Program-made: the position numbers and the translations under genes
In this document: positions 21,849-37,723 of the stretch, in pieces
How the letters are laid out: each line of letters begins with the position of its first letter
Numbering within the stretch: position 1 is the stretch's first letter
Source: Candidatus Eiseniibacteriota bacterium
GTDB lineage: Bacteria; Eisenbacteria; RBG-16-71-46; JABDJR01
Length of the DNA stretch: 64,000 nucleotides
Assembly: GCA_963762255.1 (NCBI GenBank)
Contig: CAVXKA010000001.1
Coordinates: 512,001 to 576,000 of the forward strand
Direction of reading: 5' to 3'
Notes under the pieces: generated by a model
Told to the model about the DNA's origin: nothing
Database searches by the model: none
The model's input: the letters and a program-made list of their open reading frames with translations, nothing else

Positions 21849-22943
21849 CTATTTTTGCGGGAAATGTCGGAATCCGAGGGGGGGCAGCGACGCCCACCCC
21901 CCTGCGTGCGGGACAAAAATCCCCGCTCGACCCTCGGCGACTTCTCCGATCTCGGTAATCGGGATTCCAGCCAGCCGCCCCTTGTCGCGGGCCCGCTTCG
22001 CGGCGCGGGGAGGCAGCGTGAAGAGAAGTTCGTAATCCTCGCCGCCGCGCAGGCACGCCACGACCGCGTGCTCGCCCAGGGCGTGGGCCAGGGCCTCGAA
22101 CCGGGGCCGGATCGGCAGGCGGTCGGGGTCGATGTTGAACCGCGCTCCCGACTCGGCGAGGTGGCCGAGATCGACGGAGAGGCCGTCCGAGAGGTCGATG
22201 AGGCTGGTGGGCCGGAGCGCGCGCAGTGCGAGCGCGAGTCGAACGCGCGGCTCGGGGAGAAGGAAGCGCCGAAGCGCCGCCGCGGCTTCGACGTCGCTCG
22301 TGCGCAGCTCGCGCCGCCATGCGGGTTCTCCCGCGGGCGGAGGAAACCAGGGATCGCGGGCGGTCCGCTTGCGGCCGCTCGGGGCGGCCGGGAGCACTGC
22401 CGAGAGGAGGCGAAGCCCAAGATAGGCCAGACCCGGGCGCCCGGAGACGAACACCCGGTCGCCGGGACGCGCCCCTGTCCGAAGCAGCGGTTTCCCGCTC
22501 GGGAAGCCGCCGAGCAGAAAAACCGTGACGGAGATGCGTTCGCCGCGCGCCAGGTTCCCGCCGATCACCTGCACGCCTTCGCGGCGCGCCAGCCGGCGCA
22601 TGCCGCGATACATCCGCTCTACGGCCGAGACCGACGTCGTCGGGGGGAGGATGAGCGAGACCAGCGCGTGGGTCGGCCGGCCACCCATGGCCGCGGCGTC
22701 GGAGAGGTTGGCGGCCAGCGCCTTGTGCCCGACTTCCTCGGGGAGAAACCACGCTCGATGAAAATGCGTCCCCTCGACGAGGACATCCGTGGTGAGCAGT
22801 GCGTGAGTGCCACGCAGAGGAACGACCGCAGCGTCGTCGCCGATCCCGACGCTGTCGCGCGGGGGCGCACCGAGAACCCGGGCGATCCGACGGATAAGGC
22901 CGGTCTCACCCAGGTCAGCGACGGTGAGCTGAGGGTCGGTCAG
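21849..22943 (-). CDS. thiL: Thiamine-monophosphate kinase
   Basis: In-frame extension above the ORF-track start gives LGETGLIRRI...GIGDDAA...TTDVLVEGTHF...NLSDAAAMGG; also IDLSDGL and GGEDYELLFT; probable CTG start. Confidence 0.93.
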   Translation of the reverse strand: MTDPQLTVADLGETGLIRRIARVLGAPPRDSVGIGDDAAVVPLRGTHALLTTDVLVEGTHFHRAWFLPEEVGHKALAANLSDAAAMGGRPTHALVSLILPPTTSVSAVERMYRGMRRLARREGVQVIGGNLARGERISVTVFLLGGFPSGKPLLRTGARPGDRVFVSGRPGLAYLGLRLLSAVLPAAPSGRKRTARDPWFPPPAGEPAWRRELRTSDVEAAAALRRFLLPEPRVRLALALRALRPTSLIDLSDGLSVDLGHLAESGARFNIDPDRLPIRPRFEALAHALGEHAVVACLRGGEDYELLFTLPPRAAKRARDKGRLAGIPITEIGEVAEGRAGIFVPHAGGWASLPPLGFRHFPQK

Positions 22944-23140
22944 CGGACCAACCTGACGACGTAGCCCGCGCCCTTCTTGCTGAGCTGGACCTTCTCCTCG
23001 CGGGCCAGCCAGCCGACCCCCATCTGGACCATGGAAGGAGTCTGCTTGAGCTCCTCCTTGATGTCGTTCAGAGAGGCCTCGCCAAGCCGCTCCAGAAGAT
23101 GGTAGATATCACCGGCGACGAAACCGACCTGGTTATTCAT
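22940..23140 (-). CDS. Small winged-helix protein (DUF2582-like)
   Basis: VGFVAGDIYHLL...MGVGWLAREEKV. Confidence 0.85.
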   Translation of the reverse strand: MNNQVGFVAGDIYHLLERLGEASLNDIKEELKQTPSMVQMGVGWLAREEKVQLSKKGAGYVVRLVR

Positions 23141-23181
23141 CACGAAAACCTCCTCTTGTTGCCTTGGTTGAAATCGCAGCA

Positions 23182-23210
23182 AGCTTAGGCATTCGGGGGG
23201 ATGGGGTCAA
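23182..23210 (-). promoter_or_regulatory. Sigma70-type promoter for the wHTH-thiL unit
   Basis: TTGACC-N17-TAAGCT. Confidence 0.55.
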
Positions 23211-23330: not shown

Positions 23331-24140
23331 GTGAAGCGCCTAATCGTCACCCGCCCCGGTCGCAAGATCCGTCTCAAAGACATCCGGACCGACGACGAAC
23401 TCGGTCTCGGCAGCAAGGAAGAGGCACACGAGCTCCTGAAGGCGGACCTGGAACGCCTGGGCGAACTCCAGCATCTGCTTTACGCCGACGATCGCTTCGC
23501 CCTGATGATCGTTCTCCAGGCCATGGACACCGGGGGGAAGGACGGGACGATCCGAAACGTCATGTCCGGGTTCGACCCCGTGGGCTGTGTCGTGACGTCG
23601 TTCAAGGTTCCCACGGAGGACGAACTGGACCACGATTTTCTTTGGCGCATCCACAGGGCGGTGCCGCCTCGGGGCGTGATCGGCGTGCTCAACCGATCGC
23701 ACTACGAAGACGTGCTCGTGGTGCGCGTGCACAAGCTCGTATCCAGGGAGACTTGGAAGCTTCGCTACCGCCAGATCAATGACTTCGAGCGGATGCTCAC
23801 CGAGAACGGCGTTCCGATCCTCAAGTTCTTCCTGCATATCAGCAAGGAGGAACAGGCGCTCCGGCTCAAGGCGCGTCTAGAGGACAAGACCAAGAACTGG
23901 AAATTTTCGCCGGCGGATATCGAGGAGCGCAAGCTCTGGAAGGATTATCAGGCGGCGTTCGAGGACGCCATCAACGCGTGCACCACGAAGTGGGCGCCGT
24001 GGCACATCGTTCCCGCCGACAAGAAATGGGTGCGAGACTGCGTCGTCGCCCGCGCCCTGCTCGAAAAGCTGGAGTCGCTCGATCTCCGGTACCCGAAACC
24101 GCTCTCCAAGGCGGCACTCTCGAAGATTGTGATCGGCTAG
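23331..24140 (+). CDS. ppk2: Polyphosphate kinase 2 family (polyP:nucleotide phosphotransferase)
   Basis: QAMDTGGKDG Walker A, SFKVPT, HDFLWR, NRSHYEDVL, KFFLHISKEEQ, WKFSPADI. Confidence 0.94.
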   Translation: MKRLIVTRPGRKIRLKDIRTDDELGLGSKEEAHELLKADLERLGELQHLLYADDRFALMIVLQAMDTGGKDGTIRNVMSGFDPVGCVVTSFKVPTEDELDHDFLWRIHRAVPPRGVIGVLNRSHYEDVLVVRVHKLVSRETWKLRYRQINDFERMLTENGVPILKFFLHISKEEQALRLKARLEDKTKNWKFSPADIEERKLWKDYQAAFEDAINACTTKWAPWHIVPADKKWVRDCVVARALLEKLESLDLRYPKPLSKAALSKIVIG

Positions 24141-24187: not shown

Positions 24188-24309
24188 GAAGGCCTGCGGA
24201 GTTCATTAGACTTAATTCGTCAATTATCGGGCTCCGTCGCGTGGAGGATTGTGTCGCAATTGTACAAAGCACTCGCTCGCCCGCCGACGACCCCAGAAGA
24301 GACCCGACC

Positions 24310-25689
24310 ATGTCGCGCTCGATCAATTTGATTCGTTTTTGCATAGGGCCCCATGTTTCCCTCAGGGTCTCCCATCTTCTGGCTCTCCTGGCCTGCGTAA
24401 TCGCCTGTTTCTCCTCCAACGCCACCGGGGCCGACCCCCGGTTCGGTGATTCCACCTGGGTGGCCCCCGTCATGCCGATCGTGGGGGATCCCGGAAGCGC
24501 GGGCCCACGGGTGGCCGAGCCGGATCGCGAGCGCGCGTGGGAAACCGCGCTGCGTACGCCGTTCCGCGTCGTCTTCCTTCCGCTGCGCTTTCTGGCGCGT
24601 GGCATGGAGGCCGGCGTGGGTCATTTCGGAGGGAAGTTCCTCGACCCGAAGCCGAAGGAGGCGCCACGGCCGGGGCTGGCCCTCGGACCGCACGTGGACC
24701 TCAGCGGCGCGAGCGACGGACTCGGCGGGATCGGAGCGGGACCGGCCCTCACTTGGACCGGGTTCCCGACCGCGGATTCGCGGATGGTGGCGTCAGGCAC
24801 GATGTCCATCAACGATCGCCGCCGCGCACGTCTTCGTGGGGTGGTCGGAGATCGGCGCCTGGTCGGCCTTCTCCTGCGGGTCGACTACGAGTACCGGCCG
24901 GACCGAAGCTACTACGGCATCGGGAACGACGCGCGAGAGTCGGACCGTGCCTACTACCGCCTCGAGACCACGAGCGCAGAGGCAGGGTTGTTCTACGGGG
25001 CCTCGCCGCTGCGCCGCGTGCGGCTTCTGGGCGGCTACTCGGGGATTAGTCCGGGCCGCGGATACCACGGAAGCCCCCTGCTCGACGACGTGTTCACGCC
25101 GGGGAGCGTGCCCTACGACCGCGTAGCCACTCGCGTTCTCACGTACGGAATCGCCGGAGACCTGGCCACCCTCGATGACTTGGCTGTCCCGTCGCTCGGT
25201 CTTCACGGTCGTGCCGAGCTGAGGCAAGCGGCGGGCATGCGCGGAATCGACCCTGATTACACGCAGTGGCTGGTCGAGGGCCGGGCCTACGTGCCGGTGT
25301 TCGCCCACCGCCGCGTGCTCGCCCTGCGCGCCCTGTACACCGGCGTGGATCCGACCGGCAGTACGTCGGTCCTCCCCTTCTATCGTCTCCCGGTGACCGA
25401 AAACCCGTTCCGCCTCGTCGGCTATGCCTCGCAGCGCTTCCGGGACCGTCAGCTCATCCTCTGTCGCATCGAGTACCGCTGGATCATCGGGCGCAATCTG
25501 AGCGCGGTGGCCCTGTACGAACTCAGCGAGGTGGCTTTCGAAAGGCGGGCGTTCACCCTCCGGAGCATGCACTCGGCGTGGGGGGGCGGCCTCCGTCTGG
25601 GAATGAACGACGCGACGGCTGCTCGCCTCGAGTTGGGGAAGAGCGTCGAGGGGCTCCATGCCGTCCTGCGGTTCGCGAGCGACTTCTGA
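24310..25689 (+). CDS. Omp85 (BamA/TamA)-like beta-barrel outer-membrane protein without evident POTRA domains
   Basis: Signal peptide; YYGIGN; LPFY...LVGYASQRFRDR (VRGY-like loop); IEYRW; WGGGLRLG; terminal Phe. Confidence 0.8.
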   Translation: MSRSINLIRFCIGPHVSLRVSHLLALLACVIACFSSNATGADPRFGDSTWVAPVMPIVGDPGSAGPRVAEPDRERAWETALRTPFRVVFLPLRFLARGMEAGVGHFGGKFLDPKPKEAPRPGLALGPHVDLSGASDGLGGIGAGPALTWTGFPTADSRMVASGTMSINDRRRARLRGVVGDRRLVGLLLRVDYEYRPDRSYYGIGNDARESDRAYYRLETTSAEAGLFYGASPLRRVRLLGGYSGISPGRGYHGSPLLDDVFTPGSVPYDRVATRVLTYGIAGDLATLDDLAVPSLGLHGRAELRQAAGMRGIDPDYTQWLVEGRAYVPVFAHRRVLALRALYTGVDPTGSTSVLPFYRLPVTENPFRLVGYASQRFRDRQLILCRIEYRWIIGRNLSAVALYELSEVAFERRAFTLRSMHSAWGGGLRLGMNDATAARLELGKSVEGLHAVLRFASDF

Positions 25690-27353
25690 TGCGAGTTCTC
25701 TTCGTCACCCCCGTGCTCATCTTCTTCTCAGTTATTGCGACCCCCGGGGCCTCTCCGTCCCACGCCGCGGACGACTCGCCGAAGCCGGGAATCAACGACA
25801 GCACGTGGGTGGATCACGATGGCCTTCCCATTGCGCAGCCTCCCGATTGGGGGCCGACTCTCTGGGGTAGCCTGTTCCGCGAGGGAATCGTCGAGCCTCT
25901 ATCCCACATGTTCGACGTGCCCGACAAGCTGCTGAGCACCACGGAGGTTTTCGGCGCGGATCCGGAGCGCGAGGCGGTGAACGTGAACGCGTTCGACGAA
26001 GCGCCCAACTCGACTTGGTTCACGAACCGCAACCACATGCGAGCCGTGCCGGTGACCGAGTTCGAAGAGGCCCACGGCGCGCTGCGACCCACGAAACCAT
26101 GGACCATCAAGAAACCGAAGCAAGGCGGAAACACCGTGGGCTTCCAGATCAAGGATGCCGACGGTAAGAAGTGGCTCGTCAAGCTGGATCCGGCCGGTTA
26201 CCCGCAGCTCAGCTCGGGCGCGGACCTGATCACGAGTAGCCTGCTCCAGGCCGCGGGCTACAACCTCCCGCACAATCCGATCGTGAGTTTCCGGCGAAGC
26301 GATCTCAAGATCGATGAGGATCTGCTGCAAGGTAAGGAGGGGGCGCCGTTCACGGAAGCCGACCTCGATTCGCTGCTCGCATCGGGCGCGCTCCTGTCGG
26401 ACGGCAGCTACTCGGGTTTCGCCAGCCTGTTCCTCTCCGGCCACGTGCTGGGCTCTCCGAGCACACGCCGGCTTCGCCCGGGCGATACGAACGACTGGTA
26501 CTCGCACATGAACCGCCGCGAGCTTCGCGGTCTGTACGTGTTGAGTTCCTGGCTCAACAGTTGGGACACCAAGGATCTCCAGTTCCTCGACACGTTTGTC
26601 GAGACGCGAGACAGCCTGGGACACGTCGACCATTACATACTCGACGTAGGCGCGTCTCTCGGCGTGGGAGCCGAGGGGCCGAAGAAGCTGGCGAGCGGGT
26701 TCGAGCACACGATCGACTTCGAGTGGACCGCATGGCGGATCCTGAGCCTGGGCTTTGTCGTGGAACCCTGGCGCCGGGCCCGCCAAGAAACCGGCATTCC
26801 CTCGGTGGGGAACTTCGAGTCGGCGGTCTACAAACCGGCCAAGTTCAAGGCCCTGGTACAACACCCGGCGTTCCGTGAGATGACGGACCGGGACGGCTAC
26901 TGGGGAGCCAAGATCGTGGCGTCCTTTTCCAATGCCCAGATCGCAGCGGCGGTGGACGCGGTCCACTACGAGGACCCGCGTTCCGCCCCCTACCTGGTGC
27001 GATGCCTGATCGAGCGGCGCGACAAGACCGCCCGCTACTGGTTCGACCGGGTCGCCCCCTTGGACTTCTTCTCGGTGCGAGACGGGGTGCTGCGCTTCCA
27101 CGACTTGGCGGTGGACGTCGGCCTGGCGCAGCCTCGGGCCTATGAAGTGAAAGCCCGATCACCGGAAGGCGGTGTTTCGATGGGCGAGAAGGCCCGCCTG
27201 AGCGACACGGCACTACTTCTGATTGACCTCGGTAACATCGCGTCCCGCGTTTCGCTCGAGTTCTCCATCGCGGGGAACGGAGCGAAGCCGACGCGCGTGG
27301 AGCTGAGACGAGGGGGCTCTGGATGGGTGATAACTCAAGTACGGCACGGATGA
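25689..27353 (+). CDS. Exported protein with a probable atypical kinase (HipA/PI3K-like) fold
   Basis: TGATG overlap; signal peptide; KQGGNTVG, WLVKLD, WLNSWDTKDLQFLD, YILDVGASLG. Confidence 0.7.
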   Translation: MRVLFVTPVLIFFSVIATPGASPSHAADDSPKPGINDSTWVDHDGLPIAQPPDWGPTLWGSLFREGIVEPLSHMFDVPDKLLSTTEVFGADPEREAVNVNAFDEAPNSTWFTNRNHMRAVPVTEFEEAHGALRPTKPWTIKKPKQGGNTVGFQIKDADGKKWLVKLDPAGYPQLSSGADLITSSLLQAAGYNLPHNPIVSFRRSDLKIDEDLLQGKEGAPFTEADLDSLLASGALLSDGSYSGFASLFLSGHVLGSPSTRRLRPGDTNDWYSHMNRRELRGLYVLSSWLNSWDTKDLQFLDTFVETRDSLGHVDHYILDVGASLGVGAEGPKKLASGFEHTIDFEWTAWRILSLGFVVEPWRRARQETGIPSVGNFESAVYKPAKFKALVQHPAFREMTDRDGYWGAKIVASFSNAQIAAAVDAVHYEDPRSAPYLVRCLIERRDKTARYWFDRVAPLDFFSVRDGVLRFHDLAVDVGLAQPRAYEVKARSPEGGVSMGEKARLSDTALLLIDLGNIASRVSLEFSIAGNGAKPTRVELRRGGSGWVITQVRHG

Positions 27354-28994
27354 CGACACGCACGCCGGACTCTCATACCGGTCGAGGCGGAGGCAGGCGC
27401 TTTGCCTTCGCAGCCGCGATCCTTGTCGTGCTCCTCGGCTGCGGCCACATCGGGCGTCTGCAGTACGTAGCCCAGCCCGTTTCTCCGGCGTCGACGGACA
27501 GCACGGAACTGAAGGCGTTCGTGGGGCCCATGCCTTGGCATCCCGCTGTTCGGCGACACGGCGATCGGCTTGGTGCCGGGCACCGCGGACTCTTCGATTC
27601 GCTTCCTGGGACGGCTGCGCAGCGGATACGCGGCGGATACGCTGAACATCATCCTGTGCGGCGACAACCGCCCGGGCTACCGCCTTGGGCGTCTCGCGCC
27701 GCAACTCCAGACCATCCGGCAGGGGGTCTCGCTGAATCCTCTCAAGGTCCTGCGCGCTCTGGTCACCATCCCCTACGCGATCGTGAAGGGACTGTATCCC
27801 GACTTCGCGCTCATCCGCGAGATTCCACCCATGATCAAGCGCATGCCTAAGTGGGGGCGCGAGCACGAAGTCATGGAAGCGATGCTGGTGAAGATCGATT
27901 CGCTGGAGACCCACGGGCAAGACGTCGCGGCGGTGATCAATGTCGGAGACGTCGTGAAAGACGGACGGTACCCCTCTCACTGGGAGCGATTCCTACGACT
28001 CACCCACCCACTCACGTCGCGGGTGCCTTACTTCCCCGTCCCCGGGAACCACGAGCGCACCGACACCGTGGAAGGGATCGAGAACTGGTGGACCGCGACG
28101 GGCCTGCCGGTCGGCGGTGATCGTCTCTATTACTGCTTCGATTCCGCCGATGGGTGGGTTCGATTCATCGCTCTGGATTCGAACCCGATCGTGAACTCAG
28201 GGAGCCACTGGACGCGTGAGGTCCAGATCAAGTACGCCGAGGAGCAATTCACCTGGTTGGTGGAGCGGGTCAAGGAGCACCGTGGGCCGGTGCTGGCCCT
28301 GCTGCATCACCCGCCGTTTTCGGCCGGCACGCACCGCCTCGAGTGGCAGAGAGATGAGTTGCTGCTCGAACAGCGCGAGCGCATGGTGCGGGCGTTGCAC
28401 GAGTCCGGAATCGCAGCCGTCGTGAGCGGGCACGATCACTCCTACCAGCGCGCCCTGCTCACCTGGCCCGATGCCGTGCTCATCGTCCTCGTCTCGGGCG
28501 GCGCTGGATCGCCTCTGCACGACATCCCGCTGCCCGCCGAGAGCGCGCGGTTGTTCAGCGAGTACAAGGTGGCCGGCTCGGTCGTGAAGCCCGAGAACGT
28601 CTTCACCAGCCAGGTGTTCAACTTCACCCACTTGCGTCTTTGGTTCGGCGGCGGCGATTTCTATACGTATGCGGTCGACCAGAACTCGAAGACGACGCTG
28701 ATCGACAAGGTGGAGATCGATCTCAACCGGTACGGCACGCCGGAGATCGATCAGCACAAGATGGTCATCCCGCCGTCCGGAGGGCCGTCAGAACCCTCGG
28801 AGGACAAGGCAAGCACGCCGGACTCGACCACGGCCACGGCCGATTCGACCACGGCGAGCGAGCGGCTCCTCTCGAAGCCGCCGCCGAGCGGGGAGTCCGA
28901 GCAACAGGGAATCAGCCCTGACAAGCCTGACTCCGTCTCGGTCAAGCCGCAGACCCCTCAGACGCCGGTGCCGGGCACGGGGCGACCCAGATAA
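27350..28994 (+). CDS. Lipoprotein metallophosphoesterase (calcineurin-like), frameshifted near 27524
   Basis: ATGA overlap; LLGC lipobox in the first frame; GDNR, GDVV, GNHE, HHP and GHDH in the next frame; Ser/Thr/Pro-rich tail. Confidence 0.85.
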
Positions 28995-29031
28995 TGCAGC
29001 ACGTGCTTTTGCGCACGAGAACGATGGAGGA

Positions 29032-30441
29032 ATGGACATGACCACCACCGCGTCCGACCGAGGCAAAGACGCCGGGCCGCTGAGCAAGGACTCCAAGAGT
29101 CTGCTCGACCGCTTTCTGGGGATCTTCGCGGACGTGCGCGGCGGGGAGGGTGTAACTGCGCTCCTCTTGATGTTGAACATTTTCCTCCTGCTCGCGAGTT
29201 ATTACCTGCTGAAGACGATTCGTGAGCCCCTCATCCTGGCCGGGTCGGGCGGGGCGGAGATAAAGAGCTATTCCGCGGGGGTGATCGCGGGTCTCCTCCT
29301 CATCCTCGTGCCGCTCTACAGCATGCTGGCCTCACGTGTGTCGCGCGTCAAACTCATCAACGGGGTGACGCTGTTCTTCATCGCCTGCCTCGTTGCGTTC
29401 TTCTTTCTCAGCTTGAGTGGGGTTTCGATCGGCGTCGCGTTCTTCATCTGGGTCGGGATCTTCAGCATGATGATCATCGCCCAGCTCTGGGCGTTTGCTA
29501 ACGACGTGTACACCGTGGAGCAGGGAAAGCGGCTGTTCGCCATCGTGGGCTTTGGAGCGTCCCTGGGGGCCATCGCGGGGTCCTTCGTGACCGGGCAACT
29601 GGTGAAGGTGTACGGCCCCTACCCCTTCATGCTCGGCGCCGCGGGGTTGCTCGGCCTGTGCATGGTGCTCACGACTGTCATCCATTTCCGAGAGAAGCGC
29701 CGGCTCGCGGGCGCACCGCCGGCCGCCGGGGGCGGAGCGGGTGCGGACGCTGCCGTCGAGGAGACCGCCAACGTCGAGGCTCCCGTGAAGGGGCGCAGCG
29801 GCTTCGCCCTCGTTCTATCGGATCGATACTTGCTGCTCATCGGGCTCTTGATGCTTCTCGTCAACCTTGTGAATACGACCGGGGAGTACATCCTGGGAAA
29901 GACGGTCGTTGATCTCTACGCGGCAACCCATAGCGCCGGCGCTGGATCTCTCGACGAGGGAAAAGTGATCGGGGAGTTCTACGGCAACTACTTCACCGTG
30001 GTCAACGTTCTCTCGGCCCTCATCCAGGCTCTTGTTGTCTCACGCGTATTGAAGTACTTCGGCGTGAAGGTGGGGCTGCTCGTTCTGCCCGTGGTGGCGC
30101 TCATCGGCTACGGCGCCATGGCGTTCATCCCGTTGCTTCCCTTCATCCGCTCGGTGAAGCTGGCGGAGAACTCGATCGACTACTCGCTGCAGAACACCTC
30201 GCGAAACGCTCTCTATCTGCCGACGAGCCGGGAGGCGAAATACAAGGCGAAGCAAGCCAATGACACCCTCTTCGTGCGCTTCGGGGATCTCTGTTCGGCG
30301 GGGCTCGTCTTCGCCGGTGTCACATGGCTGGGATTCACGACGAAGCAGTTCGCCCTCACAAACGCCGCGCTCGTCCTCGTCTGGCTCGTCCTCGCGATCG
30401 TGATCGGCCGGCGTTTCCAGAAGCTCGCGAAGACAGCCTGA
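29032..30441 (+). CDS. NTT/TLC-family (Npt1-like) nucleotide transporter
   Basis: About 12 TM helices; YYLLKTIREPLIL, QLWAFANDVYTVEQGKRLF, DYSLQNTSRNALYLPTSREAKYKAK, RFGD. Confidence 0.88.
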   Translation: MDMTTTASDRGKDAGPLSKDSKSLLDRFLGIFADVRGGEGVTALLLMLNIFLLLASYYLLKTIREPLILAGSGGAEIKSYSAGVIAGLLLILVPLYSMLASRVSRVKLINGVTLFFIACLVAFFFLSLSGVSIGVAFFIWVGIFSMMIIAQLWAFANDVYTVEQGKRLFAIVGFGASLGAIAGSFVTGQLVKVYGPYPFMLGAAGLLGLCMVLTTVIHFREKRRLAGAPPAAGGGAGADAAVEETANVEAPVKGRSGFALVLSDRYLLLIGLLMLLVNLVNTTGEYILGKTVVDLYAATHSAGAGSLDEGKVIGEFYGNYFTVVNVLSALIQALVVSRVLKYFGVKVGLLVLPVVALIGYGAMAFIPLLPFIRSVKLAENSIDYSLQNTSRNALYLPTSREAKYKAKQANDTLFVRFGDLCSAGLVFAGVTWLGFTTKQFALTNAALVLVWLVLAIVIGRRFQKLAKTA

Positions 30442-30449
30442 GGCTATCC

Positions 30450-33170
30450 GTGACTCCGGTGCAAGTCTTCGGCCATGTCCTCCGCCGGCTCGGACTCGAG
30501 CCCGAGGAGAATAGGCTCCTGGGCCTGATGGGCGCGCTCTGCGCAACGCTCATGTGCGCCTACACGGTCGCGAAGGTCGTGCGGGATGCGCTGTTCCTGC
30601 AGGAGTTCGGCGCGCTCTCGCTCCCCTATGCCTATGTCGCCGTCGCGCTCGTGTCGGTGGCGTTCGTGTGGTTCGAGAGCCGGCTCGCCCGACGGTTGAC
30701 GCGTGTGGGCGCGACCTGGTTCAACCAGTACACCGCGATCGGGTTCAGCGTGGCCGCCGCGTTGATCCTGCCGCATGCCCGGCACTGGACGGCTGCGGTG
30801 TTCTATCTGTGGACCGGCAGTCAGGCCATGATGCTGATTCCGCATTTCTGGCTGCTGGCGCTCCATTTCTGGGATTCCCGGCGCGCGCGCCGCATCTTCC
30901 CGCTACTCGCCGGTTTCGGGCTCATCGGCGGACTCGCCGGCGGTGCGATCGCGGCCTGGTTGGCGCCGTTGGGCCTGGTCGCGCTCACGTGGATTCTGTC
31001 GGGGCTGCTCGTGGTGGCTCATGTGCTCACGCGCATCGTGAAGCCGCGCAGCACGCGCCTCGTCGCCGCCCTGGACGCATCGCCCGGCGTCTCCAGTTGG
31101 GAGATCATTCGGCGATCCCCGTACATCAAGGTCATGGTCGCCGGCCTCGCGTTGTCGGTCATCGTCGGGACCCTGGTCGATTTCCAGTTCAAGTTCTTCG
31201 CCCAGCAGCTCTACCCGGATCCACACGCCCTGACTAGATTCCTCGGCGCTTTCTACGTCGGGCTCAACGCTTTGGCGATGCTGCTCCAATTCGGCGTCGC
31301 CGGATGGCTGTTGCAGCGCTTGGGCCTGGGGACATCCATGGGATTGCAGCCGGGAACCGTGCTGTTGTTCGCGACGCTGACGGCGGTCACCAGCGGAGGA
31401 TGGGTGGTCATCGCAATGCGATGGATTCAGGGTGTCACCGCGCAGACGCTGGGAAAGTCGGCGGCCGAGATCTACTTCGCGGCGGTCCGCCCGAGCGAGC
31501 GCCGGCGCATCAAGCTCGCGATCGACACGCTGGTCGAGCGCTGGTCGGATGCGGCGGCCGGCATCGCGCTGATCGTCGTCCTGCGCGTCCTCCATGTTCC
31601 GATTATGTTCATCGGCGTCGGGACGGCCGTCCTGGCGGCAGCGTGGATCGTCGTGGTGTGGCGCCTGCACATGCGCTACGGCTCGGCCTTCGAGCAGGCC
31701 CTGAGCAGCCGCTGGATCGAGCCTGACGTGGCGCCCGAAGCGATGCGGATCCCCTCGGCGCGCAAGGCGCTGCTGCTGGCGTTGAACGACGACGATGAGC
31801 ACCGAATCGTGTTCGCGCTCAAGCTGAGCGAGAGCGCTAGCGATCCGGCCGTTGCACGCGCGGTGCGAGACTGCCTCCGGCACGCCTCACCCGGAGTGCG
31901 CACGGCGGCAATGAGAGCGATGGAGGAGACCCGCGCGCCCGACCCGGACGGCATGATCGAGGGTTTCCTGCGCGATCCCGACGAAGGCGTGCGCCGCGCC
32001 GCGGTCGGCTACCTGCTCGTCCTGAGCGAGCAACCGATCGAGTTCGCGCGCGGTCTGCTTGAGGGCGACGACCCGACGCTCCGGCAACATGTTGTAGACG
32101 AGCTGTTCGATCGCCCCTCCGAGGCGCGCGGCGTGTTGACGCCGGCGTGGGTCGATGCCCGGGTCGCGGCCGGAACGCGTGAGGATCTGCTGCTGGTCGC
32201 GCGTGCGCTCGGCGCGATGTCCTCCAACGCAGCTGCACCGCAACTGAGAACGCTATTGGATCACGAGGATACCGAGATCCAACGAGCTGCGCTGCGCTCC
32301 GCGACCCGTCGGCCAAGCCGCATCTTCGTCGACCTCCTGGTGCCCATGCTGCTGAGGCCGGAGTTGAGCCATGAGGCCCGACGGGCCCTGTCCGCGCTCG
32401 GGGATCCGGCTGTGCCCGCGCTCCGGCGGCTGCTGAGCGGCGATCAGGGCGCGCGAGCCCGGGCCATCGCCGCGCGCGCGCTCGCACAGATTGCGACCCC
32501 GCAAGCGATCATTGCACTCATGACCCTGGTACGCGGCCCCGACGTACGCCTGCGCCACCTCGGGCTCCAGAGCCTCGCGCATGCGCGGTCGCGCAACGGC
32601 CGGCCGGTAGTCCCGCGCGCCCTTGCCCACCGGCTGTTTCTGAGAGAGTTGCTCGAGTACCGCGGATGTCTCGAGCCGGCCCGTGCGCTCGAGGCGAGTT
32701 CCGTGCCCGAGCTTCGCCTACTCGCCGAGAGCTACCGCGAGTGGGCCGACATGGCCCTCGAGCGGGCCTTCGACGCCCTGGCCTGCTGGTACGAGCCCAA
32801 ACCGCTCTTCGGCGTCTTTGACCGGCTCAGGTCGATTCAGCCGGAACGCACGTCGACCGCCCTGGAGTATCTTGGACATGTGTTGCCGCGCGCGATCTTC
32901 AAACCGGTTAGCCGGATCTTCGAGAAGACTCCGGAAGACGTCGCCGTGATCGGGTCCGAAGCCGACACGCTCGCGGGTTGGATCCGCGCCGCGTGGGAAT
33001 CGGACGACGACTGGCTGCGCGCCTGTGCCGTAAGAGCCGCGCGCCACGTCCAGGGATTCGATCTCGGGCTGTTCACCGCCGCGGCTGACGACAGTCCCAT
33101 TGTTGGCGCGGAAATCGCATCACTTTCCGTGCCCACGCGCATCGGGACGATACAGGCGGTGCCATGCTGA
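30450..33170 (+). CDS. NTT-family membrane domain fused to HEAT repeats
   Basis: AYTVAKVVRDALFL, LVDFQFK, KLAIDTLVERWSD, then HEAT repeats (LRDPDEGVRRAAV, LDHEDTEIQRAAL, DDDWLRACA); GTG 30450 with GAGG. Confidence 0.85.
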   Translation: MTPVQVFGHVLRRLGLEPEENRLLGLMGALCATLMCAYTVAKVVRDALFLQEFGALSLPYAYVAVALVSVAFVWFESRLARRLTRVGATWFNQYTAIGFSVAAALILPHARHWTAAVFYLWTGSQAMMLIPHFWLLALHFWDSRRARRIFPLLAGFGLIGGLAGGAIAAWLAPLGLVALTWILSGLLVVAHVLTRIVKPRSTRLVAALDASPGVSSWEIIRRSPYIKVMVAGLALSVIVGTLVDFQFKFFAQQLYPDPHALTRFLGAFYVGLNALAMLLQFGVAGWLLQRLGLGTSMGLQPGTVLLFATLTAVTSGGWVVIAMRWIQGVTAQTLGKSAAEIYFAAVRPSERRRIKLAIDTLVERWSDAAAGIALIVVLRVLHVPIMFIGVGTAVLAAAWIVVVWRLHMRYGSAFEQALSSRWIEPDVAPEAMRIPSARKALLLALNDDDEHRIVFALKLSESASDPAVARAVRDCLRHASPGVRTAAMRAMEETRAPDPDGMIEGFLRDPDEGVRRAAVGYLLVLSEQPIEFARGLLEGDDPTLRQHVVDELFDRPSEARGVLTPAWVDARVAAGTREDLLLVARALGAMSSNAAAPQLRTLLDHEDTEIQRAALRSATRRPSRIFVDLLVPMLLRPELSHEARRALSALGDPAVPALRRLLSGDQGARARAIAARALAQIATPQAIIALMTLVRGPDVRLRHLGLQSLAHARSRNGRPVVPRALAHRLFLRELLEYRGCLEPARALEASSVPELRLLAESYREWADMALERAFDALACWYEPKPLFGVFDRLRSIQPERTSTALEYLGHVLPRAIFKPVSRIFEKTPEDVAVIGSEADTLAGWIRAAWESDDDWLRACAVRAARHVQGFDLGLFTAAADDSPIVGAEIASLSVPTRIGTIQAVPC

Positions 33171-33901
33171 GCCCGGTGGAGCGCGTGCTCATCCTCAAGG
33201 GGGCGGACCTTCTGAGGGATGTCGGGCCGCGTCACCTGCTCGGGCTGGCGGAAGTGGCCCGCGAGATCGAAATCGCGGCGGGCGACACGATCTACAACGC
33301 CGACGATCCCGCGGACGCGCTCTACCTCGTCGTGGAGGGCCGCGTGCGGCTCATGACCGACGACAAACCCCTCTCCGAAGTGGGGCCGGGCGAGGCCTTC
33401 GGGACTTGGGCGCTGGTGGACGAGTCCGAGCGCGGCCATCGCGCCGAGTGCATCGAGGACGGTCTGGCTTTGGCGCTCCACCGCGACGAGTTCTACGACG
33501 TGGCCGCCGGAGACCTGTCGCTCCTGCAAGAGGTCCTGCGGGCCCTGGCAAAGCGTCTTCGCGCCCTCGTGGCGGAGCGGCCCGAGGAGGCCCGCGTCGA
33601 AGGTGAAGGGATCGAGAAGCCGGAGGCGATGGCGGCCCCGGAGACGGCAGAGGCCGTTTCCAGCACCGTCGCCGCTGTCGACGCCGCGACGACACCGCAA
33701 GCAGTGACCCTGCCCGAGCCGGCCAACCCGCCCAACGCCGGGCCCCCGGACACCGTGGACGCACCTGACGCGCCCGCGCCCGACGCCGCAGCGCCCACGC
33801 CCGGCGCGGAGCCGCCCGCGCCCGGGGCCGGGGCGACGCTTGCGGCCGCCGCGCTGGGAAAGACGCCTCCTGAGCCACCTGATGCCTTACCATCATCATG
33901 A
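33164..33901 (+). CDS. Cyclic-nucleotide-binding domain protein with Pro/Ala-rich tail
   Basis: ERVLILK, AGDTIYNADDPADALYLVVEGRV, GPGEAFG; overlaps the upstream stop. Confidence 0.85.
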   Translation: MLSPVERVLILKGADLLRDVGPRHLLGLAEVAREIEIAAGDTIYNADDPADALYLVVEGRVRLMTDDKPLSEVGPGEAFGTWALVDESERGHRAECIEDGLALALHRDEFYDVAAGDLSLLQEVLRALAKRLRALVAERPEEARVEGEGIEKPEAMAAPETAEAVSSTVAAVDAATTPQAVTLPEPANPPNAGPPDTVDAPDAPAPDAAAPTPGAEPPAPGAGATLAAAALGKTPPEPPDALPSS

Positions 33902-33948: not shown

Positions 33949-35721
33949 ATGACAGCTGCGACACACGTCCCACCCGGTGACGTCGATCAACTCGAAACCG
34001 AGTGGCAGTTCACCTCCCCCGAGCTGCCCGCGGTCGAGGAGTGGCTTCGCGCGCACCCGAGCCGCCAGGGCGTGGACATCGGCGAGCCCGACACGCGCCT
34101 CCTTCGGGACGTCTACTACGACACCGAGGACCACCGGATCCACCGCGCGGGCTTCACCCTGCGCATCCGCGCGGTCGGGGACCGCAACGAGGCCACACTC
34201 AAGGCGCTGGCCCCGGCTTCAGACGGCCTGCGTGTCCGCCGAGAGATCACGCATCCCCTCACCGAGGACGACCCACGCGATCTCTTCGTGAGCCAGAGCC
34301 CGGTGGGGATGCGTCTGCGCCGCTTGTGCCGAGTGACCGAGCTGAGGCCGATCGCCGAGATCCATACGGAGCGGCGCACGTTTCCGCTGCTCGCGGGAGG
34401 AGAGCCGAAGGGCTCGCTTGCGCTGGACCGCAGCGCGCTCACCGACGCCTCGGGGCGCGTCCACCATCTGCAACGGGTGGAGGTAGAGGCCGCCGGCACG
34501 GCTACCGACGCGCTTGTCCCCTTCGTCGAAAAGTTCCGTCAGAGCGAACGGTTGGCCCCCGCAGAGGAGTCCAAGGTCGAATGGGCGCTGCGCACGCTCG
34601 GCCTCAACACGGACTGGATGCTCGATCTCGGCCCGACCAAGGTGGAGCCGACGATGAGCGTGGGCGAGGTCGCATTCGCCGTGCTGCGCAAGCAGCTCGG
34701 CGCGTTCCTCCGCCACGAGCCGGGAACCCGGCTGGGTGACGATCCCGAACATCTCCATGACATGCGGGTGGCCGCGCGCCGGATGCGCGCCGCGCTGCGC
34801 GTCTTCGAGGACGTGCTTCCGCCGAACCCGACGGTTCGCTATCTCGCGGGCCTGCACGAGGTGGGGCAGGTGCTCGGGCGAGTCCGCGATCTCGACGTGC
34901 AGATCGAGCAGATCCGAAATCGCCGGAGGCTGCTCGTCGCGGCCGGCCCCTCGGATCTCGATCCCCTGCTCCAGCGACTCTCCGACAAACGCGAGCTCGC
35001 CCGCGAAGACATGATCGCGACTCTCAGTTCCGCACACTATCGCCGTCTGGTGCGCTCGCTGACCGCCTGGGTCCGCACCGGTCCCGGCCGCCGTACCGCG
35101 GCCGCGGTCCCCTCGCGCACCGCCGCTCCGCTTCTCATCCGTCGCGCCCGCCGCCGCGTGATGCGCACGGCGCGCCGCCTGGAGCCCTCATCGCCCCCGA
35201 CTGCGTACCATGAGCTGCGCATCCGCTGCAAACGGTTCCGCTACACGATGGAGTTCCTGCAACCGCTCTACGGCGCTCCGGCCGCGCGCCTCACGGAGGC
35301 ATTGGTGGACGTGCAGGATTGCCTCGGCCTCCACCAGGACGTGCAGGTGTCGATCGCGCTCATGCGACGGCTCGCCGAAGACCGCGAGGCGCCGCTCCCG
35401 GAAGGGACCGCTGTGGCGGTGGGCGAACTCACGCAACTCTGCGCGACCCAGGCCGAGGAGCTCCGAGGGCAATTCCCAAAGCTCTTCAGCCACGTCGAGG
35501 GCAAGCGCTGGCGATCGCTGCGCGGAGCGATGCTGGCCGCCACCGAGGCGCTCGCCGCAGACCTCTTCCGCCAGGCGCATCTCGACGCGGCACAGACGCA
35601 GCGAGCGCGCCTGAGCGCGCCGGCTCGCAACGTGGAGGAGGCCTCCAGCCCGAGCCCGGATCCGTGCGAGCTGAAGCCGGTCGCGCCCGTGGAGGACCCG
35701 GAGCATCCATGGAACTCGTGA
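33949..35721 (+). CDS. CYTH + CHAD domain protein (polyphosphate-binding)
   Basis: ETEWQF, DVYYDT, LRIR, VEVE; then DPEHLHDMRVAARRMRAAL, RDLDV, HELRIRCKRFRY, QDCLGLHQD. Confidence 0.9.
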   Translation: MTAATHVPPGDVDQLETEWQFTSPELPAVEEWLRAHPSRQGVDIGEPDTRLLRDVYYDTEDHRIHRAGFTLRIRAVGDRNEATLKALAPASDGLRVRREITHPLTEDDPRDLFVSQSPVGMRLRRLCRVTELRPIAEIHTERRTFPLLAGGEPKGSLALDRSALTDASGRVHHLQRVEVEAAGTATDALVPFVEKFRQSERLAPAEESKVEWALRTLGLNTDWMLDLGPTKVEPTMSVGEVAFAVLRKQLGAFLRHEPGTRLGDDPEHLHDMRVAARRMRAALRVFEDVLPPNPTVRYLAGLHEVGQVLGRVRDLDVQIEQIRNRRRLLVAAGPSDLDPLLQRLSDKRELAREDMIATLSSAHYRRLVRSLTAWVRTGPGRRTAAAVPSRTAAPLLIRRARRRVMRTARRLEPSSPPTAYHELRIRCKRFRYTMEFLQPLYGAPAARLTEALVDVQDCLGLHQDVQVSIALMRRLAEDREAPLPEGTAVAVGELTQLCATQAEELRGQFPKLFSHVEGKRWRSLRGAMLAATEALAADLFRQAHLDAAQTQRARLSAPARNVEEASSPSPDPCELKPVAPVEDPEHPWNS

Positions 35722-36212
35722 TCGTGCGCCACGCCGTGGCCTTCGACCGCGATTCCACGCGATGGCCGGACGACGACGACCGTCCGCTCAGCCCCGAGGG
35801 GATGGAGCGGTTTCGCCGGGTGGCGCGGGGTCTCGGCCGCGTCGTTCCCGAGGTGAGCGCGCTCTATGCGAGCCCCCTCGTGCGCGCCCGACAGACCGCG
35901 GAGATTTTGCAGGCCGAGGCCCACTGGCCGTCGCCGCAGCTTCTCGACGCTCTGCGCCCCGAAGAGCATCCCGAAACCCTGCTCGCAACGCTGCGCCGCG
36001 CGGGCGCGGACGAGTGCATCGCCGTGGTCGGCCACGAGCCGCATCTGCATGATCTCGTGGGGTTTCTCGCCTGCGGCCGACGGCACGGTCTGGCGGTGGA
36101 CATGAAGAAGGGTGGCGCCGCCACGATCTCCTTCACCGGCGGGGATGTCGGGCCGGGGGCCGGGCGCCTCGAGTGGCTCCTTCCCCCAAAGACGATCCTG
36201 AAGCTCCTTTAG
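35709..36212 (+). CDS. sixA: SixA-like histidine phosphatase
   Basis: MELVIVRHA, RPLSPEG, SPLVRARQTA, VGHEP, KKGG. Confidence 0.9.
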   Translation: MELVIVRHAVAFDRDSTRWPDDDDRPLSPEGMERFRRVARGLGRVVPEVSALYASPLVRARQTAEILQAEAHWPSPQLLDALRPEEHPETLLATLRRAGADECIAVVGHEPHLHDLVGFLACGRRHGLAVDMKKGGAATISFTGGDVGPGAGRLEWLLPPKTILKLL

Positions 36213-37723
36213 CTGCGCGAGCGGCGGGGCGCAGCGATCTCCAGATCCCTTCCGAACGCGCGGCGGAACCGGTCGCGGAACTTCGGCGGGTCCCACGTCG
36301 AGAGCGCGTCCATCCGAAGCACGAGTGCATCGCCGGTGTCCCGCGCGTTGACATGCGGCCGGTGGGCGGCGGGGAGCCGCTGCTCGATCTCGTCGGCCAG
36401 CGCGAGGAGGATTCCCGCTCGGCGCAGCGAGGCCAACTCCCGCGCCTGCATCATGGGACGGTAGCGCCTGAACGTCTGATCTTCGTCGTCGGCCAGCGCC
36501 ACCACCGCGGCCACCAACAGAATGTCGCGGTGCATGAACCCGAGGAGCCCGGTCGTGCGCAGGATCATCGCGGTGTGCTGGTGGCGCCGGTAGTAGTCGA
36601 TGCTGCGGCCGATATCGAGCACGTAGGCGGCGTGGTCGAGAATCTCCCGAGCCATCGGCGAGGCATGCGGCGACATCACCCGCCGCAGATCGGCGACCAG
36701 CGCGCAGCGCCGGCGGGCGCGGGCTGCATCCCATGAGGCGAACCGCGCGGCGAGAGCAGCGATCGACCGGGCGCGCACGGTCTCCGGGGTCGGCATCCCG
36801 ATGCCGGTGGACGCCAGAACGATCCCTTCCCGGACTCCCTGCCCGGCCACGACGAGACGGTCGGCACCGATATGATCCATGACCAGCTCGGCGACGAGGC
36901 TCCCCCCTACGATGGAATCGGCGCGTTCGCTGTTGAGCCCGGGCAGCGCGGCGCGCGCGGACGAGCGATTCGAGGCGAGGAGCACACCCACCTCCTGAAG
37001 GTGGTGCCGGGTGAGTTCATAGCCGTGCAGGCGGGGCACCGGGTAGTCGCGCCGCCGCGCGTCCACCTTGGCCAGGTTGCGGATGGTGCCGCCGGTGCCC
37101 ACGAGGACGTCATCGCCCTTCATGGAGGGAATCCCCGCCGCGGCCAGCGTCTTCTGAGCGTGCGCGCGAAGGCGGTGGATCTCGCCTCGACCGGGCGGAT
37201 CCCCCTTCAAGAATCGGTCATTGAGCAGCAGGGCGCCCAGCGGCAGGCTCCAAACGCGGCGCAACCGCCGCTTGCGGAATTGGGCAAGCTCCGCGCTTCC
37301 CCCGCCGATGTCGAGCACCAGGCCGTGCTCCACCGGCAGCCCGTAGACGGCCCCCAGGAACGCATTCCGCGCCTCACTCGCGGCGTCGAGCGCGAGGATC
37401 CGCAGGCCAAGCTCGCGGCGTACGCGGTCCAGGAATTCGCCCCCGTTGGCCGCCTCGCGCACAGCGGCGGTGGCCACGCCGATGACCCGCTTCGCCCCGC
37501 ACGCGCGGGCCAATTGGCGGAAGTCGCGCAGCACGACCAGCGTGCTCTCGATGGCGCGGCGCTTTAGTCGGCCCTGGGCATCGATCTCGCGGATGAGCCG
37601 TAGCGAAGCGCGCTCGTCGGCCAGCACTTCGGCGCAACCGTCGGCCGCAACGCGGAACACGACCACGCGCGCCGAGTTCGACCCGATGTCGATCACCGCC
37701 ACCGTGGAGACACCGGCTCTCAC
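36209..37723 (-). CDS. ppx: Ppx/GppA exopolyphosphatase
   Basis: IDIGSNS, ATAAVREA, DIGGGSAE, GTGGTIR, ERADSI, GVREG. Confidence 0.93.
   Translation of the reverse strand: MRAGVSTVAVIDIGSNSARVVVFRVAADGCAEVLADERASLRLIREIDAQGRLKRRAIESTLVVLRDFRQLARACGAKRVIGVATAAVREAANGGEFLDRVRRELGLRILALDAASEARNAFLGAVYGLPVEHGLVLDIGGGSAELAQFRKRRLRRVWSLPLGALLLNDRFLKGDPPGRGEIHRLRAHAQKTLAAAGIPSMKGDDVLVGTGGTIRNLAKVDARRRDYPVPRLHGYELTRHHLQEVGVLLASNRSSARAALPGLNSERADSIVGGSLVAELVMDHIGADRLVVAGQGVREGIVLASTGIGMPTPETVRARSIAALAARFASWDAARARRRCALVADLRRVMSPHASPMAREILDHAAYVLDIGRSIDYYRRHQHTAMILRTTGLLGFMHRDILLVAAVVALADDEDQTFRRYRPMMQARELASLRRAGILLALADEIEQRLPAAHRPHVNARDTGDALVLRMDALSTWDPPKFRDRFRRAFGRDLEIAAPRRSRS

Follow-up and report, generated by a model that had tools for sequence, protein, structure and literature searches.

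A family of exported proteins with a predicted atypical kinase fold is encoded beside a POTRA-less Omp85 barrel in many diderm phyla

Here we describe a pair of overlapping genes in a 64,000-nucleotide stretch of DNA from a Candidatus Eiseniibacteriota bacterium (assembly GCA_963762255.1, contig CAVXKA010000001.1, positions 512,001 to 576,000 of the forward strand; this whole stretch is called the window, and coordinates count from its first letter). One gene encodes an outer-membrane barrel of the Omp85 family that lacks POTRA domains (Omp85L), and the other a protein that is almost certainly both Sec-exported and kinase-like in fold (KIN). KIN belongs to a large, unnamed family present across many diderm phyla, and barrel and KIN form a near-obligate two-gene unit with overlapping start and stop codons, a conclusion that is well supported. 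The reading that we consider best, and to which we give an even chance, is that KIN is an envelope phosphotransferase working with the barrel and possibly supplied with nucleotide by carriers encoded next to it.

An initial annotation of this DNA, made from the letters alone, had described KIN as a signal-peptide-bearing protein with a cryptic atypical kinase active site. Its proposals on fold, conserved residues and export have stood up, while the fact that tells most about the protein had escaped it, its conserved pairing with an Omp85 barrel and with NTT carriers.

KIN is an exported protein with the predicted fold of an atypical kinase

The ATG of the KIN gene overlaps the stop codon of the upstream open reading frame by one base (TGATG), and the gene that follows, which encodes a metallophosphoesterase (MPE), begins with an ATG that overlaps the TGA of KIN (ATGA). 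The features of the gene are as follows.

25689..27353, + strand: KIN (P0001), exported atypical kinase-fold protein of 554 residues, recognised by its open frame, fold and conservation
25689..25766, + strand: predicted Sec signal peptide, residues 1-26, cleavage guessed after S-H-A, from the sequence by eye
26079..27053, + strand: kinase-like catalytic core, about residues 131-455, from structural alignments spanning model residues 131-458
26118-26141, + strand: Gly-rich loop KQGGNTVG within the core, residues 144-151
from 26172, + strand: WLVKLD within the core, residues 162-167, with the K165 codon at 26181-26183
around 26223-26225 (the D179 codon), + strand: SSGADLI within the core, residues 175-181
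26475..26531, + strand: family-specific loop and helix, R263-x-D-D266-P-N268-D269-x-x-P-H273-E-x-R276-R277-E-L-R280-G, recognised by conservation among 138 sequences
from 26562, + strand: WDTKDLQ within the core, residues 292-298, with the D293 codon at 26565-26567 and the Q298 codon at 26580-26582
from 26634, + strand: YILDVG within the core, residues 316-321, with the D319 codon at 26643-26645
27054..27350, + strand: C-terminal fibronectin-III (FN3)/Ig-like beta-sandwich, residues 456-554, from FN3 structural matches of middling Z

The motifs that had first suggested a kinase are thus all in place, and so is the signal peptide claimed alongside them: judged by eye, the N-terminus (MR, 17 hydrophobic residues, then SHA followed by AD) resembles a Sec signal, and a crude custom script found a hydrophobic N-terminal segment in 134/138 family members and a lipobox-like motif in 62/138 (~45%).

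AlphaFold2, given a 138-row alignment, produced a model of KIN with a predicted local distance difference test score (pLDDT) of 91.1 and a predicted template modelling score (pTM) of 0.91. In this model the Gly-rich loop lies between strands 138-143 and 151-155, K165 ends the strand 161-166, D179 sits on the helix 175-189, D293 to Q298 follow the helix 282-289, and D319 follows the strand 310-317. The family-specific stretch at residues 263-280 is modelled as coil and then as a helix, 277-289, just ahead of the catalytic loop.

Compared with the PDB by Foldseek, the model matched PI4KII-alpha (E 4.5e-5), CtkA (8.9e-5) and Fam20C (4e-4, up to 5e-4) at probabilities of 0.99-1.00; the next listed matches were YabT, HipT and classical protein kinases, so that the top of the list is almost entirely kinase-fold, and SidJ appeared among the weak matches (E 7.6e-3). 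VIA-align, run exhaustively against 48,161 chains and independently of Foldseek, returned 14 chains at Z>=8, all of them atypical kinases: CtkA (Z 14.3, root-mean-square deviation (rmsd) 3.7, 227 residues aligned), Fam20C (12.8, 258 aligned), PI4KII-alpha (12.4), CotH (12.2), HipA (11.6), actin-fragmin kinase (11.6) and MavQ (10.2), as well as HipT and the bacterial Ser/Thr kinase 7wcf. A second aligner gave Z 15.2 for CtkA (rmsd 3.9, 233 aligned), ~13 for Fam20C (257-260 aligned, from model residue 35-39), ~12.5 for PI4KII and 10-11.6 for HipA/HipT. FN3 domains matched residues from about 450 to 545 at a middling Z of 7.2-7.9 (rmsd 2.4-3.1 over 73-90 residues). The bilobal kinase fold proposed at the outset is therefore recovered in the model: with only atypical kinases at Z>=8 among all chains searched, a bilobal atypical kinase is a well-supported prediction for KIN.

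The catalytic residues are conserved across the family

Conservation was read from an alignment of KIN with 137 full-length proteins (500-620 residues) from the 150 best representatives, 13 shorter fragments having been dropped; the 137 relatives share about 27-53% identity. The Gly-rich loop is kept at K144 (123 of 138 sequences), G147 (133) and G151 (123). The candidate ATP-site lysine, K165, is present in 130/138 and D167 in 132/138, while position 179, the candidate acidic partner of that lysine on helix C, holds Glu in 86 and Asp, the residue of KIN, in 32. D293, the putative catalytic Asp, is kept in 134/138; position 295 is Lys in 61 and Arg in 50; position 298 is Asn in 128/138 and Gln in KIN and 6/138. 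D319, the putative metal-binding Asp of the DFG-type motif, is kept in 135/138 and is followed by F320 in 117 (Val in KIN) and G321 in 107. Taken as a sequence pattern, the family consensus, WLNHxDxKxxNTLD ... HYLIDFG, is a textbook catalytic loop with a DFG motif, from which KIN departs at S291, Q298 and V320, and it departs at D179 as well.

These departures are not private to KIN. Among the 120 sequences of its close clade (>=58% identity), K165 is kept in 119/120, D293 and D319 in 120/120 each, position 298 is Gln in 90, Asn in 25 and Asp in 5, and position 179 is Asp in 119. On this comparison S291, Q298, V320 and D179 are clade traits, not decay. The lysine and both aspartates, whose invariance the initial annotation had named as a check, are conserved, and they align with the catalytic residues of HipA-like proteins (below). 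It had also been suggested that the Asn-to-Gln and Glu-to-Asp changes might mark a pseudokinase; the retention of K165, D293 and D319 would speak against decay of that kind.

The stretch at residues 263-280 is among the most conserved of the family (R263 135, D266 137, N268 127, D269 138, H273 137, R276 132, R277 138 and R280 138, of 138). Binding of a metal or of an anionic substrate is conceivable for it.

A large family outside current sequence models

At least 947 KIN homologues are present in a 90%-clustered collection, where all that are named are called 'hypothetical protein', the label that the initial annotation had expected from automated pipelines. An exhaustive search of 50%-identity representatives found 2388 members at E<=1e-3, of which 556 reach E<=1e-30, with a conserved core of roughly residues 90-485. 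The closest named homologues come from metagenome-assembled genomes (MAGs) labelled Candidatus Eisenbacteria; other loci lie in MAGs that carry the labels Acidobacteriota, Zixiibacteriota, Latescibacterota, KSB1, Ignavibacteria, Gemmatimonadota, Rhodothermales/Cytophagia, Krumholzibacteriia, Calditrichaceae and Kofleriaceae. The genome that contains the window has no match besides KIN itself, and several genomes of the phylum sample have 2-4.

Pfam has nothing above threshold for KIN, the sole row at E<=0.1 being ORF_12_N (14.3 bits, cut-off 26.7); the models for Fam20C (PF06702), PI3_PI4_kinase (PF00454), CotH (presumably PF08757) and Pkinase do not match it, and NCBIfam returns 0 families. 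Searches of PDB sequences gave chance matches only, both with KIN by phmmer (for example a cathepsin propeptide, E 0.005) and with the family profile (a designed armadillo repeat, E 1.7). A full-text literature search turned up, within the collection searched, no paper describing the KIN family or a module of barrel, kinase and NTT.

The one link at the sequence level is to HipA_2 (PF20613, cut-off 27 bits). KIN itself has no match to this model at E<=0.1, and in a Pfam scan of 69 of the 137 relatives, roughly every second one, it appeared below threshold in 2/69 (E about 2e-3, ~18 bits), as it did in one genome scan. Four HipA_2 genes from four genomes of the same class (L052-L055) were translated and aligned for comparison. 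With hhalign, the KIN-family profile matched these four proteins at a probability of 86% (E 5e-6, 144 columns). In this alignment K165 falls on the Lys of YVAKFR, D293 and position 298 on the Asp and Asn of NVDRTPRN, and D319 on the Asp of IDHG. Since neither KIN nor its relatives in the Pfam scan reach the cut-off, KIN is not filed in HipA_2, and the relation holds at the profile-profile level only. As a weak lead, the nearest named clusters in the ESM atlas are Fam20C, HipA_2, PI3_PI4_kinase and LepB_N, at 0.79-0.81.

KIN is encoded next to a POTRA-less Omp85 barrel

24310..25689, + strand: Omp85L, POTRA-less outer-membrane barrel of the Omp85 family, recognised by sub-threshold sequence models and its AlphaFold2 fold

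The frame of Omp85L is open from a GTG at 24241, and the likely start is the ATG at 24310. Its sequence scores stay below threshold (Pfam Omp85 PF01103, 21 bits against a cut-off of 24; NCBIfam Omp85_fam, E 2e-11). In the AlphaFold2 model (pLDDT 81.2), 16 strands span residues 122-455; ahead of them lie just a signal helix and a single long helix, with no POTRA, and Foldseek matches it to the barrels of TamA and BamA at E 2e-11 to 1e-10.

Two sets of loci were used to examine the neighbourhood of KIN. The same-phylum set comprises 20 loci with 8-kb flanks on long contigs, searched by tblastn with the window proteins. For the cross-phylum set, a pattern scan of species-representative genomes, based on a 20-row sub-alignment of the KIN family, confirmed at least 580 loci; 80 diverse ones were kept and searched with profile hidden Markov models built from the same-phylum homologues. 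Omp85L lies directly upstream of KIN in 17/20 same-phylum loci and, on the same strand, in 66/72 diverse loci with 1300 nt or more of upstream sequence. The six others vary: the barrel is directly downstream in L106 and L108, upstream after a gap in L130 and convergent in L122, two tandem KIN genes follow one barrel in L136, and L118 has none. Given these neighbourhood counts, and those for the genes downstream (next section), barrel and KIN are the core of the locus, and carriers and phosphoesterase its frequent accessories.

A structural prediction of the complex (barrel residues 38-459 with KIN residues 28-554) scored 0.27 and 0.31, where the mark is 0.32, without controls, and counts neither way. 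In having a 16-stranded barrel without POTRA domains, the Omp85L model agrees with the 'noNterm' class of POTRA-less Omp85 proteins, for which a role in membrane-protein biogenesis has been suggested (Heinz and Lithgow 2014, PMC4104836); the passage on that class names no kinase-like partner (PMC4104836).

Tandem units of the two genes occur in some genomes, with three pairs in L107 and two in L064, in addition to the two KIN genes behind one barrel in L136. The two window proteins also share the pentapeptide DSTWV near their mature N-termini (GDSTWVAP in the barrel, 24424-24438; NDSTWVDH in KIN, 25794-25808), which may mean nothing, since by rough arithmetic ~0.08 chance 5-mer matches are expected between two proteins of ~500 residues.

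Two-partner secretion, a TpsB barrel with a TpsA cargo, was considered for the pair and set aside: the barrel model has no POTRA, and Pfam finds no two-partner secretion (TPS) domain in KIN.

Nucleotide carriers, a phosphoesterase and polyphosphate genes in the neighbourhood

Downstream of KIN the window encodes the following.

27350..28994, + strand: MPE, calcineurin-like metallophosphoesterase with a lipoprotein signal (Pfam Metallophos, E 3.5e-13)
29032..30441, + strand: NTT/TLC-family carrier resembling ATP/ADP translocases (Pfam TLC PF03219, 55.5 bits, cut-off 21)
30324..33170, + strand: NTT-HEAT fusion carrier, true start probably downstream of 30441 (Pfam HEAT_2, E 5.5e-19)
33164..33901, + strand: cyclic-nucleotide-binding protein, directly after NTT-HEAT (Pfam cNMP_binding, E 5.5e-15)

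The NTT-HEAT protein also has sub-threshold matches to MFS_1 and TLC (TLC 14.7 bits). An NTT-type gene lies within 8 kb of KIN in 18/20 same-phylum loci, in 32/80 diverse loci and in 17/42 diverse loci with full flanks, where we calculate that chance proximity would be roughly 1-3% (1-6 TLC matches per genome of 2-7 Mb). Of 201 phylum genomes sampled, 101 have KIN and 99 a TLC match; 88 genomes have both, 13 KIN only, 11 TLC only and 89 neither (87, 13, 11 and 89, with KIN in 100/200, when one unpublished genome, G015, is left out), a table that is descriptive only. MPE is found in 12/20 same-phylum and 11/80 diverse loci, and a cyclic-nucleotide-binding gene in 20/100 KIN loci.

The order NTT, NTT-HEAT, cyclic-nucleotide-binding domain (cNBD) in the window is an arrangement already described: NTT and NTT-HEAT genes occur in free-living bacteria, where a cNBD gene often comes next, and are uncharacterised there (Major, Embley and Williams 2017, PMC5381601). 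The passages of that paper on these genes mention no exported kinase-like protein or Omp85 barrel, and the word 'export' is absent from its main text (PMC5381601).

Further out, the window carries a group of polyphosphate genes and, beside PPK2, a small winged-helix gene.

22940-23182, - strand: small DUF2582 winged-helix protein, divergent, upstream of PPK2 (Pfam, E 1.6e-16)
23331-24140, + strand: PPK2, 1.5 kb upstream of KIN
33949-35721, + strand: CYTH-CHAD, 6.6 kb downstream of KIN
36209-37723, - strand: PPX, with PPK1 8.9-12.5 kb downstream of KIN
37720-39867, - strand: PPK1, with PPX 8.9-12.5 kb downstream of KIN

Polyphosphate had been floated as an alternative donor, and a flanking cluster of PPK2, CYTH-CHAD, PPX and PPK1 is indeed present here; it is not conserved near KIN elsewhere. 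PPK2 is near KIN in 1/100 loci overall and 0/20 of the same phylum, and CYTH-CHAD in 0/100, its +6.6 kb offset being only partly inside the flanks. For PPX and PPK1 the 8-kb flanks of the 100 loci are too short, and the comparison is with four relatives whose flanks were extended by 17-19 kb (both sides in two, downstream only in two; two of the four from the same order): none of the four has PPK1, PPX, CYTH-CHAD or PPK2 there. On the loci and extended flanks examined, a conserved polyphosphate context was therefore rejected.

Relation to known kinases

By its predicted structure, KIN falls, with good support, in the neighbourhood of CtkA, Fam20, PI4KII, CotH and HipA. The best match, CtkA of Helicobacter pylori (3akj/3akk/3akl), aligns with model residues 131-459 at Z 14.3-15.2 (rmsd 3.7-3.9, 227-233 residues, 10-12% identity). 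CtkA is smaller, about 280-290 residues, and the alignments leave the N-terminal extension, the 263-280 motif and the FN3-like domain of KIN without an equivalent. CtkA is an atypical Ser/Thr kinase that leaves the cytoplasm as a secreted protein, and we know of no Omp85 or NTT partnership for it.

Fam20C, the Golgi casein kinase (4kqa, 4kqb, 5yh0, 5xom), gives the longest alignments (244-260 residues, starting from residue 35; Z 12.3-13.2) and is the nearest named ESM atlas cluster to KIN at 0.81, a weak lead. It carries a signal peptide and works in a non-cytosolic compartment that needs ATP supplied by carriers. It is eukaryotic, save for bacterial Fam20-like clusters in the ESM atlas, shares about 10% identity with KIN, and its model PF06702 leaves KIN unmatched.

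HipA_2 is the sole sequence-level relative, and HipA/HipT structures match at Z 9.9-11.6. The four HipA_2 proteins compared here are 254-259 residues long, start at the kinase N-lobe and, by eye, lack an N-terminal hydrophobic segment; their catalytic loop is D-R-x-x-R-N with D-H-G, whereas that of the KIN family is D-x-K-x-x-N with D-F-G. The lipid kinases PI4KII-alpha/beta (Z 12.0-12.6) and MavQ of Legionella (10.2), together with CotH of Bacillus (12.2), belong to the same fold group, share no sequence model with KIN and differ from it in partners and compartment; CotH is an extracytoplasmic (spore-coat) bacterial kinase.

Phosphorylation of the envelope is also known from quite different enzymes. 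LpxT, a membrane phosphotransferase tied to undecaprenyl phosphate synthesis, is not known to have a kinase fold, whereas KIN is predicted to have one. It phosphorylates lipid A on the periplasmic side of the membrane (PMC2229476), an illustration of envelope phosphorylation that avoids ATP.

A proposed role in the envelope and its alternatives

The periplasm is commonly held to lack ATP. In the reading that we favour, KIN would transfer phosphate on the periplasmic side, either at the outer membrane or beneath it, in partnership with the Omp85L barrel. The barrel could serve KIN as an anchor, a platform or a substrate; a protein, a lipid or a glycan could be modified. The NTT/TLC carriers, run as exporters, would deliver the nucleotide donor to the periplasm, a role suggested by analogy with the ATP supply of the endoplasmic reticulum (ER) and Golgi for Fam20C, and the exported MPE might reverse the modification or process the spent nucleotide. 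That KIN is an active phosphotransferase is predicted from its conserved residues and seems rather likely, while a carrier-delivered nucleotide as its donor is a tentative idea to which we give somewhat less than an even chance. A general form of the scheme, in which free-living diderms of many phyla run ATP-dependent periplasmic phosphorylation through NTT export of ATP and retrieval of ADP, a barrel-docked kinase that acts on targets in the outer membrane or periplasm and a resetting phosphoesterase, is doubtful.

Several observations weigh against this picture. The family is known here from sequences and models, and the clustering of the active site was judged by alignment to known kinases. 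KIN itself has Gln in place of the near-invariant metal-binding Asn, Val in place of the Phe of the DFG motif and Ser where the family has His ahead of the catalytic Asp. Nor is the carrier link obligate: 48/80 diverse loci have no NTT in the fetched flanks; the phylum-wide table overstates the association because related genomes are not independent; and one family of the phylum (f13) has KIN in 14/14 genomes and TLC in 4/14, supplying 10 of the 13 genomes with KIN only. The MPE frame is broken in the assembly by one extra base near 27539. Finally, all characterised NTTs, those of parasites and plastids, import nucleotides (Major et al. 2017, PMC5381601), and it is for this reason that export into the periplasm is something we infer.

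Among the alternatives, a kinase fold with other chemistry or none, as a pseudokinase partner of the barrel or an enzyme of some other nucleotide-dependent transfer, is unlikely. Kinase folds have reportedly been put to other uses, in AMPylation by SelO and in glutamylation by SidJ, and SidJ is among the weak Foldseek matches of KIN (E 7.6e-3). KIN is off consensus at Q298, V320 and S291, the periplasm in which it would act is generally thought free of ATP, and the conserved Arg/Asp/His motif at 263-280 has no counterpart that can be named in known kinases. Pseudokinases, however, usually lose some of their catalytic residues, and here at least 130/138 diverse and at least 119/120 close sequences retain each of K165, D293 and D319. 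The glycines of the Gly-rich loop are kept as well; the co-occurrence with NTT genes fits a consumer of nucleotide, which would equally allow a nucleotide transfer other than phosphorylation. Scavenging, in which barrel, MPE and KIN would process extracellular nucleotides or organophosphates and NTT would import the products, is quite unlikely. It would agree with the frequent presence of an exported phosphoesterase, with the setting of the window cluster amid PPK2, CYTH-CHAD, PPX and PPK1, and with the import direction of all characterised NTTs (Major et al. 2017, PMC5381601). It gives no obvious role to a kinase fold with an intact-looking ATP site, the invariant core is barrel plus KIN and not phosphoesterase or carrier, and the phosphate-gene context is not conserved. 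We also know of no Omp85 barrel that serves as a solute channel.

A kinase displayed on the surface or secreted, with the barrel as its dedicated exporter or anchor in the manner of two-partner or type V systems and its action outside the cell, appears very unlikely. Barrel and cargo-like genes are strictly adjacent, as such a system would have them, the best match, CtkA, is a secreted protein whose PDB title calls it the 'proinflammatory kinase' of H. pylori, and the tandem pairs in L064, L107 and L136 recall diversifying surface systems. Against this stand the absence of a TPS domain among the Pfam results for KIN, the lipoprotein-like form of ~45% of members (62/138), which suits periplasmic anchoring, and the inner-membrane position of NTT carriers, which would not feed an extracellular enzyme; moreover, TpsB and type V exporters have POTRA domains, which the barrel model lacks (Heinz and Lithgow 2014, PMC4104836). 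Highly improbable, in our judgement, is an exported kinase that uses polyphosphate, with Q298 and D179 as adaptations to that donor. Although PPK2 lies 1.5 kb upstream and CYTH-CHAD, PPX and PPK1 lie 6.6-12.5 kb downstream in the window, the idea rests on the context of one genome because these genes are not near KIN elsewhere (PPK2 1/100 and CYTH-CHAD 0/100 loci, with flanks that partly cover the offset of the latter, and none in the four extended relatives), and the clade with Q298 and D179 is far larger than one genome. Polyphosphate is, besides, made in the cytoplasm.

To return to the envelope phosphotransferase, an exported family with an intact-looking kinase site challenges the picture of a periplasm without ATP, the lack of which known envelope phosphorylations get round. 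If the proposal is true, the module would be a bacterial counterpart of the ER/Golgi pairing of ATP carrier and Fam20C, and it would explain what the NTT and NTT-HEAT carriers, so far enigmatic, do in free-living bacteria and give a role to a second orphan group, the POTRA-less Omp85 proteins. For testing, it singles out four proteins: a kinase-like enzyme, a barrel and two carriers. Should the donor hypothesis fail, the family is still a new and sizeable branch of the atypical kinase fold outside Pfam and NCBIfam.

The MPE reading frame and matches in sequencing runs

In the window the lipoprotein signal of MPE (ATG 27350, ...LVVLLGC...) and its body (frame of 27513) stand in different frames, while L050 and L051 carry homologues whose single frame is unbroken. 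DNA runs of three studies yielded contigs about 95% identical to the window that cover this region. One of them spans 25000-29000 with 196 substitutions and a single gap: the base at 27539, which is missing in DNA contigs from all three studies and is the sole indel. By frame arithmetic, its removal puts MPE signal and body in register, so that the frameshift reflects an error of the assembly or else a break specific to the strain. Because the only indel lies at 27539, the KIN frame is intact in these ~95% identical relatives.

In the metatranscriptomic library X20, short contigs match 25090-25253, 26537-26684, 27540-27681 and 28442-28562 with 0-9 differences each. They fall on barrel, KIN and MPE and, with DNA carry-over possible, are at most a weak hint of expression. 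The highest share of the window's sampled words in any sequencing run was 0.23.

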